5,378 nucleotides of DNA from a virus. Taxonomy: Duplodnaviria > Heunggongvirae > Uroviricota > Caudoviricetes. Position numbers and translations under genes: made by a program. The DNA is taken from the IMG/VR virus record IMGVR_UViG_2671180921_000005, positions 1 through 5,378 of that record; one strand, written 5' to 3'. Below are positions 1 to 5,378 of this stretch, in pieces (within the stretch, counting starts at the first letter, position 1; each line of letters begins with the position of its first letter). The notes under the pieces were generated by a model that ran no database searches, was not told the DNA's origin, and saw only the letters and a program-made list of their open reading frames with translations.

Positions 1-1
1 G

Positions 2-397
2 AACGCCATTCAAGCTATCCAGCAAATCCTTCCAGACCCAACCAAACCAATCGTAGTAACCATTCAGGAACGCAACCGTAGCTTAGACCAAAACCGAAAG
101 CTTTGGGCTTGCCTTGGTGACGTCTCGCGTCAGGTTGAATGGCATGGTCGATGGCTGGATGCAGAAAGCTGGAAGTGTGTGTTTACCGCAGCATTAAAGC
201 AGCGGGACGTTGTTCCTAACCTTGCCGGGAGTGGCTTTGTGGTAATAGGCCAGTCAACCAGCAGGATGCGTGTAAGCGAATTTGCGGAGCTATTAGAGCT
301 TATACAGGCATTCGGTACAGAGCGTGGCGTTAAGTGGTCAGACGAAGCGCGACTGGCTCTGGAGTGGAAAGCAAGATGGGGAGATCGGGCTGCATGA
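2..397 (+). CDS. ninB: NinB recombination protein (Orf-family single-strand annealing/recombination mediator), 5'-truncated by the window edge
   Basis: Frame 2 is open from the window start to TGA at 395-397. The translation (…[130 protein letters not shown]) matches lambda NinB as I recall it almost residue for residue. The ORF track only shows the part from the internal Met at 179. Confidence 0.9.
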   Translation, partial: NAIQAIQQILPDPTKPIVVTIQERNRSLDQNRKLWACLGDVSRQVEWHGRWLDAESWKCVFTAALKQRDVVPNLAGSGFVVIGQSTSRMRVSEFAELLELIQAFGTERGVKWSDEARLALEWKARWGDRAA

Positions 398-921
398 CTA
401 TCAAATCAAATACGCCAGCACACGACAAGGACTGCTGGCAAACGCCGCTTTGGCTTTTTGATGCACTGGATATTGAGTTTGGATTCTGGCTGGATTCGGC
501 AGCGAGCGACAAAAACGCTCTGTGCGCTCACTGGCTAACTGAGGCTGACGACGCGCTAAATTCTGAGTGGATAAGCCACGGTGCAATCTGGAATAACCCA
601 CCGTACAGCAATATCAGGCCGTGGGTGGAAAAAGCCGCTGAGCAGTGCATACAACAGCGACAGACGGTAGTGATGCTTGTGCCAGAGGATATGTCTGTCG
701 GATGGTTCAGCAAGGCTCTGGAGAGTGTTGACGAAGTTCGTATTATCACTGATGGACGGATTAATTTTATCGAACCATCGACAGGGCTGGAGAAGAAGGG
801 AAACAGCAAAGGCTCCATGCTGCTGATTTGGCGACCGTTCATTAGTCCTCGACGGATGTTTACTATCGTATCCAAAGCGGCATTGATGGCGATCGGGCAG
901 GGCGTCAGGAGGGCGACATGA
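394..921 (+). CDS. Phage Dam-family DNA N6-adenine methyltransferase (orphan, no cognate nuclease visible)
   Basis: ORF in frame 1 ending at TGA 919-921. The translation carries the motif-IV signature WNNPPYS (N/D-PP-Y of amino-methyltransferases) and an N-terminal [12 protein letters not shown] segment typical of the small phage Dam family. Start chosen at ATG 394, which overlaps the ninB stop (ATGA) and has GGGGAG 10 nt upstream; ATG 376 is an alternative. The ORF-track start at 334 lies inside ninB and is unlikely. Confidence 0.82.
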
Positions 922-1100
922 GGCGACAACGACGAAGTTTCACCGACATCATCTGTGAAAACTGCAAATACCTTCCAACGAAACGCTCCAGAAATAAACG
1001 CAAGCCAATCCCAAAAGAATCTGATGTAAAAACCTTCAACTACACGGCTCACCTGTGGGATATCCGGTGGCTAAGACATCGTGCGAGGAATACAAGGTGA
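918..1100 (+). CDS. ninE: NinE protein (small, basic, function unknown)
   Basis: 60-aa ORF whose translation ([60 protein letters not shown]) closely matches lambda NinE from memory. Its start overlaps the methyltransferase stop (ATGA at 918-921). Confidence 0.85.
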
Positions 1101-1159
1101 TTGACGCGATGATTTATTTGGGGCTATATTCCTCACGCGCCAGCAAAATCTGGCGTCGG

Positions 1160-1170
1160 GATTAGGAACC
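1160..1170 (+). repeat. Copy 1 of the 11-bp motif GATTAGGAACC (core TTAGGAAC)
   Basis: Exact 11-mer gattaggaacc at 1160-1170, identical to 1326-1336. An inverted copy of the core (gttcctaa) is at 1295-1302. Confidence 0.6.
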
Positions 1171-1192
1171 CCGGATAGAGACCGCGACAGAC

Positions 1193-1216
1193 ACACGCCG
1201 CGAGCGTGTTTTTTAT
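1193..1216 (+). terminator. Candidate rho-independent terminator downstream of ninE
   Basis: acacgc (1193-1198), loop cgcga, gcgtgt (1204-1209) form a 6-bp stem, followed by ttttt-a-tt. The stem is short, so confidence is moderate. Confidence 0.5.
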
Positions 1217-1294
1217 TGTCGTATGCACGCGCACATCTGAATTATGGTGGGGCGTATGGGGGAGCTGAAAAGCTCGCCGGTTGGTTTCCCGGTA

Positions 1295-1336
1295 GTTCCT
1301 AACCCTGTACGTCTCACCACCCGATGATTAGGAACC
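1295..1336. promoter_or_regulatory. Inverted repeat GTTCCTAA-N26-TTAGGAAC immediately upstream of the ORF6N gene; candidate operator or protein-binding site
   Basis: gttcctaa at 1295-1302 is the reverse complement of ttaggaac at 1329-1336. The right arm is part of the exact 11-mer also present at 1160-1170. It lies 40-80 bp upstream of the GTG start at 1378. Confidence 0.4.
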
Positions 1337-1377
1337 TGACGGTGGTGATAGTTTAGAAACCACTCGAGGGCGTCATT

Positions 1378-2058
1378 GTGACAACTCAAATCTCTGTTGA
1401 AACTCTCTCCCCGATCACCCATAACCAGATTCCTGTTATTACCACCGAACTTTTGGCGCAGCTTTATGGCACAGAAATTCTGAACATCCAGGTTAACTTC
1501 ACCAGAAACAAAGAGCGTTTTGTCGAAGGAAAGCACTTTTTTAAAGCATCTGGTGAGGAATTAAAAAATTTGCGACTTACTTTAAGTAAGTCACAAAACC
1601 CCATATCTCCCAAAGCCCGCTCCCTTATCCTCTGGACAGAACGCGGAGCAGCCCGTCATGCAAAAATGCTCGAAACCGATCAGGCGTGGGATGTGTTCGA
1701 AAAACTGGAAGACTGCTATTTCAGCCAGTGCGAGAAAAATACTGGCAAACAAGAGAAGAAGCCCAACGGGCTTTCCGCAAAAGAAACAGACATCCTTGTA
1801 TGGCTGTGGGATTATGCCAACCGCTCACAGGCATTGTTCCGTGAGTTGTATCCCGCATTAAAACTGATTCAGTCTGGCTATTCCGGCATATGCCACGACT
1901 ACGGCTATGAGTTCTCGTATATCATCGGGAGGGCGAGGGGCGTTTTAATTAATCACACGCGGGATATAGATATTTATGAGCCTGACGGGCCGACGAACCT
2001 TCTGGCATGGGAAAGGCTTAATAACAAAGAGTTGCCGCCTTCACTGCATCGCTACTGA
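1378..2058 (+). CDS. ORF6N/KilA-N-type domain protein (antirepressor-like N-terminal domain) with an uncharacterised C-terminal half
   Basis: 226-aa ORF starting at GTG 1378, with GAGGG 7 nt upstream. The N-terminal ~115 aa contain [46 protein letters not shown] and [33 protein letters not shown], the pattern I associate with ORF6N-domain prophage proteins (NFxRNKERFxEGKHYF…ILWTERGA). The C-terminal ~110 aa are not recognised. Confidence 0.72.
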
Positions 2059-2074
2059 CAATTGACAACTTAAC

Positions 2075-2099
2075 AAACCCAGCTTCGGCTGGGTTTTTT
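2075..2099 (+). terminator. Strong rho-independent terminator
   Basis: aaacccagc (2075-2083), loop ttcg, gctgggttt (2088-2096), followed by a run of six T. This is a perfect GC-rich stem with a tetraloop and U-tract, 17 nt after the ORF6N stop. The A-run upstream means it could also work on the minus strand. Confidence 0.85.
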
Positions 2100-2132
2100 A
2101 TTGCTGAATTTTCAATGTGAGAGGACATGACA

Positions 2133-2855
2133 ATGAATGAGCTGATAAATAACAATGCCATCAAAATGACAAGCATTGAAATCGCTGAGTTGGTGGGAAG
2201 CCAACACGGTAATGTCAGAATATCAATAGAACGTCTGGCAAAGCGTGGGGTGATTCAACTTCCTCCAATGCAAAAAGTTGAAAATAAACAAACAATTAGC
2301 CCTAACAAATTCACAAGCGTGTATATATTCGAAGGCGAACAAGGTAAGCGCGATAGTATCATTGTCGTCGCCCAGTTGTCGCCAGAGTTCACCGCTCGCC
2401 TTGTTGACCGCTGGCGAGAACTCGAAGGGGCAACCGCGAAAATCCCACAAACCTTCTCTGAAGCATTGCGCCTCGCGGCTGACCTTGAAGACCAGAAGGC
2501 TGAACTGGAGAAACAGCTTGCTCTCGCAGCACCTAAAGTTGATTTTGCCGATCGCGTTGGCGAGGCCAGCGGAATTTTGATTGGAAACTTTGCAAAGGTT
2601 GTTGGTATTGGTCCAAACAAACTGTTTGCGTGGATGCGCGATCACAAAATCCTTATTGCTTCAGGTTCCCGGCGAAATGTGCCAATGCAGGAATATATGG
2701 ATCGCGGCTATTTCACAGTGAAAGAAACAGCGGTCAACACAAATCACGGAATACAGATATCGTTCACCACAAAAATAACCGGGCGTGGTCAACAGTGGCT
2801 GACCAGAAAGCTGCTCGATAACGGAATGCTGAAAGTAACAGGGGTGGCTGCTTAA
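2133..2855 (+). CDS. Phage antirepressor-like regulatory protein: N-terminal Rha domain plus C-terminal KilAC/AntA-type domain
   Basis: ORF ending at TAA 2853-2855. The N-terminus (MNELINNNAIKMTSIEIAELVGSQHGNVRISIERLAKRGVI) resembles the phage Rha family, and the C-terminal part (PKVDFADRVGEASGILIGNFAKVVGIGPNKLFAWMRDHKIL…) resembles KilAC-type antirepressor domains. Start placed at ATG 2133 because GAGG (2121-2124) sits 8 nt upstream; ATG 2127 (the ORF-track start) is possible but only 2 nt from the GAGG. Confidence 0.78.
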   Translation: MNELINNNAIKMTSIEIAELVGSQHGNVRISIERLAKRGVIQLPPMQKVENKQTISPNKFTSVYIFEGEQGKRDSIIVVAQLSPEFTARLVDRWRELEGATAKIPQTFSEALRLAADLEDQKAELEKQLALAAPKVDFADRVGEASGILIGNFAKVVGIGPNKLFAWMRDHKILIASGSRRNVPMQEYMDRGYFTVKETAVNTNHGIQISFTTKITGRGQQWLTRKLLDNGMLKVTGVAA

Positions 2856-3145
2856 TGGCTAACCTACGCAAAGAAGCGCGCGGCAGAGAATGTCAGGTAC
2901 GTATTTACGGCGTATGCAATGGCAATCCTGAAACTACAGTTCTGGCACATTACCGGATGGCTGGAATTTGCGGAACTGGAATGAAGCCTGACGACCTGAT
3001 CGGCGCATGGGCTTGTAGCGCGTGTCACGATGAAATCGACCGACGCACCCATAATCTCGACAACAAAGACGCCAGACTTTACCACCTCGAAGGCGTGATC
3101 AGGACGCAGGCGATACTGCTGAAGGAGGGGAAGATTAAACCATGA
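2855..3145 (+). CDS. DUF1364-family protein (YbcO-like), Cys-rich putative metal-binding nuclease-like protein
   Basis: 96-aa ORF whose start overlaps the upstream stop (TAATG). The translation MANLRKEARGRECQVRIYGVCNGNPETTVLAHYRMAGICGTGMKPDDLIGAWACSACHDEIDRR… has the conserved Cys cluster and closely resembles E. coli prophage protein YbcO as I recall it. It sits directly upstream of rusA, as in DLP12-type prophages. Confidence 0.8.
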   Translation: MANLRKEARGRECQVRIYGVCNGNPETTVLAHYRMAGICGTGMKPDDLIGAWACSACHDEIDRRTHNLDNKDARLYHLEGVIRTQAILLKEGKIKP

Positions 3146-3504
3146 ACGAATATCAGTTTGTGCTTCCATACCCGCCGTCGCTGAACACCTACTGGCGAAG
3201 ACGGGGAAGCCAATACTACATCAGCGATAAAGGCCAGAAATACCGAAAAGACGTTCAGAAAATCATCCGCCAACTCAAGTTAGACATTTTCACCAAATCA
3301 CGACTCCGCATCAAAGTCATCGCAGACGTTCCAGACTCCCGCCGCCGCGACCTCGATAACATCCTGAAGGGTTTACTCGACTCCCTTATCCACGCCGGAT
3401 TTGCGGAAGACGACGAGCAATTCGATGACATTCGCGTAATTCGTGGTGTGAAAGTACCAGGCGGAAGGCTTGGAATAAAAATCACCGAACTGGAGAACGT
3501 ATGA
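3142..3504 (+). CDS. rusA: RusA Holliday-junction resolvase (crossover junction endodeoxyribonuclease)
   Basis: 120-aa ORF with an ATGA overlap to the upstream gene. Counting residues in the translation gives D70, D72, K76 and D91 within …RRRDLDNILKGLLDSL…AEDDEQFDD…, exactly the positions of the RusA catalytic Asp/Lys residues. The length also matches RusA. Confidence 0.92.
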   Translation: MNEYQFVLPYPPSLNTYWRRRGSQYYISDKGQKYRKDVQKIIRQLKLDIFTKSRLRIKVIADVPDSRRRDLDNILKGLLDSLIHAGFAEDDEQFDDIRVIRGVKVPGGRLGIKITELENV

Positions 3505-3689
3505 ACGCCACAATTCAAACGATACCAGAGCTTCTTATCCAGACACGAGGCAATCAGACCGAAGTGGCGAGGATGCTTTCCTGCGCAAGAGGAGCAGTGC
3601 TCAAGTACAACCGAGACAGCAAAGGCGAGCGTCACGTAATAGTTAACGGAGTCCTGATGGTCACGCCAGGCAAAAAGGGAAGACGATGA
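3501..3689 (+). CDS. ninH: NinH-like small DNA-binding protein
   Basis: 62-aa ORF with an ATGA overlap upstream. The translation (…IPELLIQTRGNQTEVARMLSCARGAVLKYNRDSKGERHVIVNGVLMV…) matches the lambda NinH pattern (…GNQTEVARRL.C.RGTV.KY…H.IVN.VLMV) from memory. Confidence 0.8.
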   Translation: MNATIQTIPELLIQTRGNQTEVARMLSCARGAVLKYNRDSKGERHVIVNGVLMVTPGKKGRR

Positions 3690-4309
3690 GACTCGAAAGC
3701 GTAGCTAAATTTCATTCGCCAAAAAGCCCGATGATGAGCGACTCACCACGGGCTACGGCTTCTGACTCTCTTTCCGGTACTGATGTGATGGCTGCTATGG
3801 GGATGGCGCAATCACAAGCCGGATTCGGTATGGCTGCATTCTGCGGTAAGCACGAACTCAGCCAGAACGACAAACAAAAGGCTATCAACTATCTGATGCA
3901 ATTTGCACACAAGGTATCGGGGAAATACCGTGGCGTGGCAAAGCTTGAAGGAAATACTAAGGCAAAGGTACTGCAAGTGCTCGCAACATTCGCTTATGCG
4001 GATTATTGCCGTAGTGCCGCTACGCCGGGCGCAAGATGCAGAGATTGCCACGGTACAGGCCGTGCGGTTGATATAGCCAAAACAGAGCAGTGGGGGATAG
4101 TTGCTGAGAAAGAGTGCGGAAGATGTAAAGGCGTCGGTTATTCAAGAATGCCAGCAAGCGCCGCATATCGCGCTGTGACGATGCTAATCCCAAACCTTAC
4201 CCAACCCACCTGGTCACGCACTGTTAAGCCGCTGTATGACGCTCTGGTTGTGCAATGCCACAAGGAAGAGTCAATCGCAGACAACATTTTGAATGCGATC
4301 ACACGTTAG
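3686..4309 (+). CDS. Q: Late gene antiterminator Q (lambda Q type)
   Basis: 207-aa ORF with an ATGA overlap to ninH. The translation is near-identical over its length to lambda Q as I recall it (MRLESVAKFHSPKSPMMSDSPRATASDSLSGTDVMAAMGMAQSQAGFGM…), including the Cys4 zinc-binding motif CRDCHG…CGRCKG. Its position immediately upstream of a pR'-like promoter fits. Confidence 0.93.
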   Translation: MRLESVAKFHSPKSPMMSDSPRATASDSLSGTDVMAAMGMAQSQAGFGMAAFCGKHELSQNDKQKAINYLMQFAHKVSGKYRGVAKLEGNTKAKVLQVLATFAYADYCRSAATPGARCRDCHGTGRAVDIAKTEQWGIVAEKECGRCKGVGYSRMPASAAYRAVTMLIPNLTQPTWSRTVKPLYDALVVQCHKEESIADNILNAITR

Positions 4310-4351
4310 CGCCATGATTGCCACGGATGGCAACATATTAACGGCATAATA

Positions 4352-4410
4352 TTGACTTTTTGAATAACTTTGGGTAAATTTGACACCAATAATGGGCGTT
4401 TTTTACCTGT
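4352..4410 (+). promoter_or_regulatory. Late promoter pR' with overlapping qut (Q-utilisation) site and promoter-proximal pause region
   Basis: -35 TTGACT (4352-4357), 17-bp spacer, -10 TAAATT (4375-4380). The string ttgactttttgaataactttgggtaaatttgac is near-identical to lambda pR' (TTGACTTATTGAATAAAATTGGGTAAATTTGAC). Predicted start is about 4387-4388. The early transcribed region contains the -10-like element ccaataat, analogous to the lambda pause-inducing element. Confidence 0.78.
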
Positions 4411-4588
4411 CACTGATGAGTCTCAATAACCTGCCGCCGAGTAGTTTTTATGCTCTGAATTGTATTTGTGTAGTAAACATGCTGACTGCAATGTAATAGA
4501 GGTTTTTTAGCCTGTAACCTCTTGACGGCATTGAATTGCTTTTGTTGTGAGTTGTAAGCCAATGTTATCATCTTGTATAGAGGTGGTT

Positions 4589-5305
4589 ATGAGGGATGGT
4601 GCACTGCTCAGGAGTTCTTCACTTTTTATAGCCTACATGGGATGCCTTGGATGGGGAAGTGCTTATTTCTATGGCTGGGGTACTTCTTTTTACTACGGAT
4701 TCCCATGGTGGATTGTAGGTGCAGGTGTTGATGATGTTGCCAGAAGTTTATTTTTTGCAGTTATCGTCATTGCTATATTTCTTATCGGTTGGGGTATTGG
4801 TGTTGTATTCTTTTTCGCTGTGAAAAGAAAACATTCTATGCAGGAGCTAAATGTATTTCGCCTTTATTTTGCTGTGGAATTATTGTTTGTGCCGGCAATT
4901 ATTGAGTTTTCTATATTGAGACAGAAGATTCAGGTACCTCTTTTGCTACTGTCAGCAGCGATTGCGCTGGCAGTTACAATTTCGATAAGATCTTATGGGC
5001 GATTTTTATCGGTATCATGCTTCTATGGTAAGCCATTTATAAAAAAACATATTTTTGAAGTTGTGATGGTTGCTTTTGTGGCATATTTCTGGCTCTTCTC
5101 ATTTCTGACAGGATATTACAAACCTCAGTTTAAGAAAGAATATGAAATGATTAATTATAATGATGCTTGGTATTATGTTCTTGCTCGTTATGATAATTGT
5201 CTGGTTTTGTCTACTTCTTTTAATGCAGGTAGTAAGAGGTTTGTCATTTATCAATCAGCACAAGACAAGAATCTTCAGGTTGATATTGTAAGGACCAGAA
5301 TTTAA
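4589..5305 (+). CDS. Hypothetical multi-pass inner-membrane protein (about 238 aa; 4-5 predicted TM helices plus ~55-aa C-terminal soluble tail), AT-rich moron cargo downstream of Q/pR'
   Basis: Long ORF in a strongly AT-rich segment, ending at TAA 5303-5305. Start placed at ATG 4589 with a good SD (AGGTGG at 4581-4586, 2-nt gap before the ATG); the ORF-track start at GTG 4547 and ATG 4562 lack an SD. Hydrophobic stretches: SLFIAYMGCLGWGSAYFYGWG, LFFAVIVIAIFLIGWGIGVVFFFAV, LYFAVELLFVPAIIEFSIL, VPLLLLSAAIALAVTISI, IFEVVMVAFVAYFWLFSFLTGYY. No family recognised. The segment has no long ORF on the opposite strand. Confidence 0.6.
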   Translation: MRDGALLRSSSLFIAYMGCLGWGSAYFYGWGTSFYYGFPWWIVGAGVDDVARSLFFAVIVIAIFLIGWGIGVVFFFAVKRKHSMQELNVFRLYFAVELLFVPAIIEFSILRQKIQVPLLLLSAAIALAVTISIRSYGRFLSVSCFYGKPFIKKHIFEVVMVAFVAYFWLFSFLTGYYKPQFKKEYEMINYNDAWYYVLARYDNCLVLSTSFNAGSKRFVIYQSAQDKNLQVDIVRTRI

Positions 5306-5378
5306 TTGGCTGCATAAATAATATTTTTAGTTGCAAGTTGGCTATTCGTAAGAATAGAACCTTAGGCATGCTGAATGC

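Follow-up and report, generated by a model that had tools for sequence, protein, structure and literature searches.

A probable moron between the late promoter pR' and the lysis genes of a lambdoid phage: an AT-rich, exchangeable cassette with a membrane-protein gene

The subject of this work is the AT-rich 3' end of a 5,378-nucleotide (nt) stretch of tailed-phage DNA (Caudoviricetes; positions 1 to 5,378 of IMG/VR record IMGVR_UViG_2671180921_000005), which was analyzed at its full length and is called the window hereafter. Positions 4397-5378 very probably represent the left two-thirds of a moron, that is, an exchangeable accessory cassette located between the late promoter pR', with its adjoining Q-utilization site (qut), and the lysis genes, and expressed both in the lysogen and in lytic growth. 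The feature is ordinary and widespread, a routine example of phage mosaicism. A reading of the segment as acquired cargo had already been made from the sequence alone; the refinements added here are joints that appear to be nested and a terminator that appears to be dead.

From left to right, the proposed arrangement would comprise a lambda-type Q-pR'-qut module up to 4396, a leader of ~100 nt with the dead terminator (4397-4495) and the cargo from ~4496 onward. The latter would consist of a promoter-like element, a gene for a 238-amino-acid (aa) protein of the PF27470/STM1630 family and, past the window, a DUF3927 gene. In agreement with a moron, the cassette is inserted between features that are adjacent in related phages, and its composition is distinct from that of its flanks (37.1% vs. 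49.3% G+C; 30.5% vs. 46-58% G+C at third codon positions, GC3). The promoter and terminator of its own that a moron carries may be represented by a sub-threshold promoter-like site (4542-4571) and by terminators past the DUF3927 gene, outside the window, all of them being consensus matches only.

Composition and distribution of the cassette

The G+C content is 49.5% in positions 1-4309, 49.3% in 1-4389 and 37.1% in 4390-5378, and the lowest value of any 989-nt window sliding inside 1-4389 is 44.1%. The drop is strongly supported (two-proportion z = 6.9), with none of 5000 block shuffles being as extreme. The abrupt compositional break after pR' that the sequence-only reading had described is thus confirmed by the sliding windows and the shuffles. 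Its estimate of a G+C content in the mid-30s is slightly low for 4390-5378 as a whole and correct for 4900-5300 (30-37%). Similarly, of the four codons it had named as dominant, TTT (18), TAT (13) and ATT (13) are the commonest in the open reading frame (ORF) at 4589-5305, whereas AAA occurs just six times.

The best single change point for G+C lies at 4331, just past the Q stop at 4309, because the promoter itself is naturally AT-rich. In detail, the segment from the Q stop to +9 of the late transcript has 37.9% G+C in lambda and the same figure in the window; past +9 the values are 47.9% in lambda, 45-48% in HK97 and HK446, and 38.5% in the window. In a related complete locus, that of Escherichia coli EDL933 (L003), the AT-rich block covers ~1.25 kb with 36.6% G+C in a background of ~50%.

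It is highly improbable that the low G+C merely reflects a hydrophobic protein rich in Phe, Ile, Tyr and Leu and bears no mark of foreign origin, even though the product uses F, L, V, A and I more often than any other residues and the coding strand is strongly T-rich (AT skew -0.25 to -0.39). The AT bias sits at synonymous sites, because the GC3 of the ORF is 30.5%, compared with 46-58% across seven upstream genes. Synonymous choices are shifted as well, with TTT/TTC used 18/7 times in the ORF and 14/19 times upstream, and with 14 GGT/GGA against 2 GGC/GGG glycine codons. The non-coding flanks are as AT-rich as the ORF (36.8%), that is, 38.7% G+C in the leader at 4390-4588 (38.5% past +9) and 35.6% in the 3' spacer at 5306-5378, whereas the equivalent segments of lambda, HK97 and HK446 have 45-48%. 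Independent evidence comes from the presence/absence polymorphism of the cassette. The low G+C is no by-product of the amino acids of a membrane protein.

The pR' part of the window is shared by 101 phage records, only three of which contain the cargo (phage 2B8 twice and phage 434); the AT-rich DNA is 98% identical in 2B8 and 96% in 434. The cassette is absent from lambda, HK97, HK446, HK022, mEp506 and ~98 other phage records sharing pR', and in lambda, HK97 and HK446 pR' leads to the holin gene without it. Among 5426 complete E. coli genomes, matches occur at 1231 places in 698 genomes, and 682 genomes have a near-full-length copy. The carriers include EDL933, E2348/69 and strains of serogroups O26, O103, O111, O121 and O145.

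Two contexts of the cassette were found. A lambda-type Q with the exact junction of the window is present in 570 E. coli genomes. A Q82-type Q precedes the cassette in phage 434, the O55:H7 prophage and strain 08-3918, and the corresponding pR'-plus-terminator junction is present in 620 genomes. The cassette therefore stands behind two unrelated Q/qut modules, and its alleles are shuffled independently of the context. The AT-rich segment, once aligned to lambdoid late regions, proved not to be conserved core sequence, since most lambdoid phages are without it. Its interpretation as horizontally acquired cargo is well supported by this absence from most phages sharing pR', by the two Q contexts, by the shuffled alleles and by the AT-rich nature of the gene family.

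To the right, the shared core extends ~237 nt past the window end, through the DUF3927 gene, and in some loci 494 nt past it, including a strong terminator. The downstream neighbors vary, being a SASA esterase gene (57% G+C), a DUF6645 gene, insertion sequence elements, or a lone hypothetical gene on the reverse strand and then the holin gene. In many loci, a SASA/nanS-p-type esterase gene of 55-58% G+C lies 3' of the cassette (6549-8399 in EDL933, L003; 4404-6254 in phage 434, L001; 6567-8420 in EC12, L007). As this high-G+C esterase gene follows the AT-rich cassette, the Q-to-S interval carries two cargos of opposite composition.

The whole window had no full match in the complete E. coli genomes or in the phage records, the best hit showing 95% identity over 81% of it, and its cargo allele differs by 2-3% from every copy examined. 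As no record matches the whole window, its source is a mosaic unrepresented in those collections.

Late promoter, nested joints and the terminator relic

The ~50% G+C backbone ends with a gene for the late-gene antiterminator Q of the lambda type (3686-4309, + strand; Pfam Antiterm PF03589, E = 1.2e-57), which is identical to lambda Q in 203 of 207 residues (98%). It is followed on the same strand by pR' (4352-4380), with a -35 hexamer TTGACT at 4352-4357, a 17-nt spacer and a -10 hexamer TAAATT at 4375-4380, as located by a promoter scan and by column-by-column alignment with lambda, HK446 and HK97. The spacer is presumably the Q-binding element, as in lambda.

Transcription probably starts near 4388, where a putative -10-like pause element AATAAT (4388-4393) is followed by GGG (feature 4388-4396, + strand). 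The string AATAATGGG of the window (4388-4396) matches lambda AACGATGGG at +1 to +9, with AATAAT opposite lambda AACGAT at +1 to +6, and similarity is then lost. We take AATAAT to be the element inducing the sigma70-dependent pause needed for Q loading. Hexamers, spacer, pause-like element and an upstream lambda-type Q gene are thus all found, as in a lambda-type pR'/qut, to which they would owe their function by analogy.

In ~100 phage records, the megablast matches end at 4384-4396. HK97, HK022, HK140 and mEp506, for instance, match the window only as far as this interval, and homology to lambda, HK446 and HK97 extends to 4389-4396. These alignments place the first joint at 4396/4397, about +9 of the late transcript and directly after the conserved pause element, so that the qut site, as far as its sequence defines it, would be kept whole upstream of the joint. 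The earlier estimate, which put the joint a few bases past the start of the late transcript, was right within ~7 nt, but there is more than one joint, a second and sharper boundary being found at ~4491-4496. The string GGGTAAATTTGAC, which had been quoted as transcribed bases, ends at 4384 and corresponds to the -10 hexamer and the discriminator, which are untranscribed.

Two further observations concern this region. The lambda-like -10 hexamer of the window, TAAATT, reads GAAACT in phage 2B8, EDL933, EC12 and O111 FWSEC0005 (L002, L003, L007 and L011), and this weaker form is seen in exactly the arrangement without a terminator before the cargo. A run of six T residues at 4399-4404 would appear in the inferred pR' transcript as a U-tract from +12 to +17; its position coincides with the +16/+17 pause of RNA polymerase in lambda, which is without such a run.

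The leader begins with a linker (4397-4427, + strand) restricted to the arrangement of lambda-type Q and cargo and not alignable with the Q82-context copies. In a sensitive blastn search of 4386-4450 against 50,697 phage records, phage 2B8 was the sole match, and the first 28-31 nt of the leader had no other occurrence among phages. The linker is followed by a context-specific segment (4425-4495, + strand), delimited by position-by-position comparison. Between the window and the lambda-Q copy of EDL933 this segment shows no difference (0 of 71 positions), as against 18 of 71 (25%) in comparison with the Q82-context copies. From 4496 to 5378, EDL933 (lambda-Q) and O55:H7 (Q82) differ at only 3 of 883 positions (99.7% identity), and the cargo allele of the window is ~3% diverged from that of EDL933 despite the identical leader at 4425-4495. 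Because the identity pattern switches at ~4496, positions 4397-4495 are assigned to a leader belonging to the lambda-Q arrangement, with the exchanged unit starting from there. The comparisons therefore point to a nested joint, that is, an arrangement-specific leader (4397-4495) and an exchangeable cargo (from ~4496).

Within the leader, positions 4428-4449 (AACCTGCCGCCGAGTAGTTTTT, + strand) are homologous to AAACCCGCTGCCGAGTGGGTTTTTTTT of phage 434 and O55:H7 and appear to be the relic of an intrinsic terminator. In the Q82 context, AAACCCGCTGCCGAGTGGGTTTTTTTT folds at -13.3 kcal/mol (z = -4.3) with a 9-bp stem and a run of 8-10 T residues, is scored as a terminator and lies 30-50 nt 3' of a TTGCAA-17-TATACT promoter. 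The window homologue reaches -3.9 kcal/mol (z = +0.5), no better than shuffles. Three stem substitutions and a shortened T run make the homologue degenerate in the window, 2B8, EDL933, EC12 and O111; the same was found in 570 of 570 genomes with the window junction, in which it is 95-99% identical to the window version.

A scan of 4200-5378 for canonical hairpin-plus-T-run terminators, the only type that it recognizes, found no terminator-like site, and so the intrinsic terminator that a lambda-type 6S/tR' unit has within ~200 nt of pR' was not found in the window. The leader as a whole is predicted to be unstructured (z = +0.64 vs. shuffles) and is G-rich and C-poor (GC skew +0.23). In the complete lambda-Q loci, the first strong terminators lie 3' of the DUF3927 gene. 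A hairpin at 4498-4522 (z = -1.8) was rejected as a terminator, having no T run and a stem base that varies in relatives. The Rfam scan of 4300-5378 gave no match.

The PF27470 gene and its family

The gene of the cassette (4589-5305, + strand) encodes a predicted inner-membrane protein of 238 aa, and is preceded by a Shine-Dalgarno sequence GAGGTGG (4580-4586). Longer starts giving 247 or 252 aa were rejected, as the homologues of all contexts begin at the Met of 4589 with its Shine-Dalgarno sequence and the start codon is conserved among them; a 53-aa minus-strand ORF (4410-4571) was likewise rejected. The product matches phrog_1521 (E = 3.7e-151; in PHROGs, only families without an assigned function were matched). 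In precomputed assignments, PF27470 covers all 106 of 106 homologues and is labelled 'TfpB' in tool tables, a label whose origin was not traced in the literature, and the RefSeq name of a 97%-identical E. coli protein is 'STM1630 family protein'.

The family is a small one of enterobacteria: an exhaustive HMMER search of 1.84 billion clustered proteins yielded 71 representatives and no link to any known family. A dN/dS of ~0.1 indicates purifying selection, and the alignment of the family is conserved, both in favor of a real gene. Hydropathy shows about four clear transmembrane segments, and an AlphaFold2 model built from 40 sequences (pLDDT 78.8) has helices over residues 5-181 and a five-strand beta domain at 184-235. 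The product is thus predicted to be a polytopic inner-membrane protein. A first model from 24 sequences (pLDDT 63) had given MscS-like Foldseek matches, which were not trusted (E = 0.3 or worse). As for known anti-phage defence systems, no PADLOC family was matched at E up to 1.

The family gene is AT-rich wherever it is found, namely beside eltAB on a contig of enterotoxigenic E. coli, beside sseJ in Salmonella and beside lpxR in Citrobacter rodentium. In the Salmonella case, the protein encoded beside a Sif/Lipase_GDSL (sseJ-type) gene (P0074) shows 45% identity over 100% of the length. STM1630 is listed among the genes co-regulated with Salmonella pathogenicity island 2 (SPI-2); a promoter of its own has been mapped, and data on intramacrophage expression had made the gene a candidate for study. 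In the enterotoxigenic contigs (L012-L015), the family gene is divergent from eltAB, which encodes the heat-labile toxin, with estB nearby; it is also divergent from sseJ in Salmonella (L016) and from lpxR in C. rodentium (L017). The lpxR gene occurs just 5' of Q in phage 434 (L001) and in the O55:H7 prophage as well.

Upstream of the gene lies a candidate promoter of its own (4542-4571, + strand), a consensus match with a -35 TTGTTG (4542-4547), an 18-nt spacer and an extended -10 TGtTATCAT (4563-4571). In all relatives scanned, the site is called as TTGTTA-18-TATCAT with the TG. The CII-binding consensus TTGT-N6-TTGT that the 434 record annotates (window 4545-4558) was found unsupported, its spacing to the -10 being ~2-3 nt shorter than in lambda pRE. 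Downstream, an AT-rich spacer (5306-5378, + strand) leads toward the gene of the DUF3927 small membrane protein, which starts 14 nt past the window end (coding sequence at 6092-6250 of L003, in which 6079 is the equivalent of the window end).

Elsewhere in the window, Rfam models matched on the + strand at 1124-1177 (c4-a1b1), 1137-1214 (isrK; 69 bits, threshold 50) and 1240-1324 (C4 antisense RNA; 67 bits, threshold 45). This stretch (1124-1324) is directly 5' of an ORF6N/P22_AR_C antirepressor-like gene and a Rha/KilAC gene (ORFs 1378-2058 and 2127-2855), and the whole resembles an immunity module of the P1/P7 c4-ant type (similar to Gifsy isrK-anrP) that has been inserted in the nin region. 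The local G+C dips to 0.385-0.40 at 1401-1600 and 2101-2300.

Expression of the cassette and related systems

Given its position and its location on the late-transcript strand, the cassette would be transcribed by Q-modified polymerase in lytic growth. In the lysogen, it is most likely expressed as well, which would occur from its own extended -10 promoter, through unterminated pR' transcripts, or by both routes, possibly damped by H-NS. As pR' is constitutive in lambda and no terminator was found before the gene, expression in the lysogen seems at least as likely as silence. Most probably, the protein serves the lysogen as a conversion or fitness factor that acts in the inner membrane.

Several findings weigh against the moron reading. 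The promoter-like site of the window has one extra -35 mismatch and falls below the scan threshold, and the counts of such sites in these regions are no higher than the shuffled expectation. The right end of the cassette and its terminator lie outside the window. The ORF had no match in the local Pfam-A, NCBIfam or PADLOC scans, the PF27470 model not being part of the Pfam and NCBIfam copies scanned, and no significant sequence or fold match in PDB or BFVD, including a profile search of the PDB sequences. Deletion of STM1630 gave no macrophage-replication phenotype, and the literature search returned no expression data for the locus. Finally, in E. coli O111:NM FWSEC0005 (L011 1363-2117) the family gene is annotated as frameshifted, the region being 11 nt longer than in the window; because of this one genome, the gene is regarded as dispensable in at least some hosts.

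How the cassette is regulated can be read in different ways. According to the sequence-only reading, H-NS would bind and silence the island in the lysogen, with expression following conditional derepression. Xenogeneic silencers favor AT-rich foreign DNA (PMC8476142), and the segment qualifies as such: its G+C content is 37% over at least 980 nt of the window (36.6% over ~1.25 kb in L003), and its density of A/T tracts and TpA steps is double the upstream value. The co-regulation of STM1630 with SPI-2 and its candidacy from intramacrophage expression data point the same way, a pattern of this kind being typical of H-NS-silenced genes. Binding by H-NS is therefore plausible from composition; silencing is a reasonable possibility but not the more probable outcome, since the strong promoter directly 5' of the island is constitutive in lambda and is not separated from the island by an intact terminator, and elongating polymerase could disrupt H-NS filaments. 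In addition, a scan for high-affinity H-NS motifs gave only three weak matches, and the literature search found no chromatin immunoprecipitation or hns-mutant data for the locus. Possible too, but somewhat unlikely, is constitutive expression from pR' in the lysogen, the terminator having been lost at the 5' edge of the cassette and in effect moved behind the cargo. The lambda-like hexamers of pR' in the window, the degenerate homologue of the Q82 terminator in 570 of 570 genomes with no terminator in 4200-5378, and the position of the first strong terminators of the complete loci past the DUF3927 gene all argue for it, and the G-rich, C-poor leader would make a poor Rho-loading site. Yet most E. 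coli copies examined have the weakened -10 (GAAACT for TAAATT), and Rho-dependent or H-NS-assisted termination, to which a scan for canonical terminators is blind, may occur.

That the cassette serves a true late lytic function, as a Q-dependent membrane protein for lysis timing or superinfection exclusion, is unlikely. The cassette does lie in the late operon, on the late strand and, in complete loci, just 5' of the holin and endolysin genes; both of its products are small membrane proteins, and the strong terminator of the Q82 context would make expression from pR' Q-dependent. Nevertheless, the cassette is missing from the majority of lambdoid phages that have this Q and these lysis genes, and homologues are also found in non-phage surroundings where lysis genes are not close by. 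Furthermore, STM1630 of Salmonella is transcribed from a promoter of its own and regulated together with virulence genes, and PADLOC gave no match. The moron reading, with expression in both states, is preferred. A more specific version of it is tentative and rather doubtful: in the lambda-Q lineage, the terminator would have been inactivated and replaced by terminators behind the cargo, so that the constitutive pR' would have a second role, as promoter of lysogenic conversion by the PF27470 and DUF3927 membrane proteins, whereas the Q82 lineage would keep the cargo Q-dependent. If true, one cargo would follow two regulatory logics, set by ~70 nt of leader alone.

The slot from Q/pR' to the lysis genes is the one in which Stx phages carry their toxin, and its other cargo and wiring bear on lysogenic conversion in pathogenic E. 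coli. The cassette occurs in about one-eighth of the complete E. coli genomes, often twice, including reference enterohemorrhagic and enteropathogenic strains, and its protein family also adjoins eltAB, sseJ and lpxR in other enteric pathogens. The intact and dead terminators of the two Q contexts constitute a natural experiment on the expression of late-operon cargo in lysogens. Hundreds of annotated genomes, as well as the record of phage 434, already contain the element, annotated as a hypothetical gene.

Morons were defined for HK97 and HK022, and bor and lom of lambda are the classic examples. The cassette resembles them as an extra unit between genes that are adjacent in related phages, with distinct composition, shuffling among phages, a promoter-like element on its 5' side and, in complete loci, a terminator on its 3' side. 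It differs in being placed inside the pR' late unit and not in the head-tail region or on the opposite strand beside the lysis genes, and in carrying two genes, one of them in the window; activity of its own promoter and expression in the prophage are putative here.

The stx genes occupy the same slot, 3' of Q/pR' and 5' of S in the same orientation, and share with the complete loci a SASA/nanS-p-type esterase gene as the downstream partner. Their expression from pR' depends on Q read-through of tR', whereas the lambda-Q arrangement has no intact terminator between pR' and the cargo. The cargo of the cassette is a membrane protein and not a toxin, and no tRNA genes accompany it.

STM1630 of Salmonella Typhimurium, beside sseJ, belongs to the same family (PF27470; 45% full-length identity) and is similarly AT-rich in a foreign islet, but the gene is chromosomal, has its own mapped promoter and has an upstream region not alignable with the window. 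Phage 434 (OL657226) carries the same cassette, with 96% DNA identity from 4445 onward; its gene CPT_434_68 is annotated as 'putative membrane protein', and the DUF3927 gene (named 'TciB' there) comes next, ahead of the SASA esterase gene. In contrast to the window, 434 has a Q82-like antiterminator in front of the cassette, and its promoter and gene are separated by an intact terminator.

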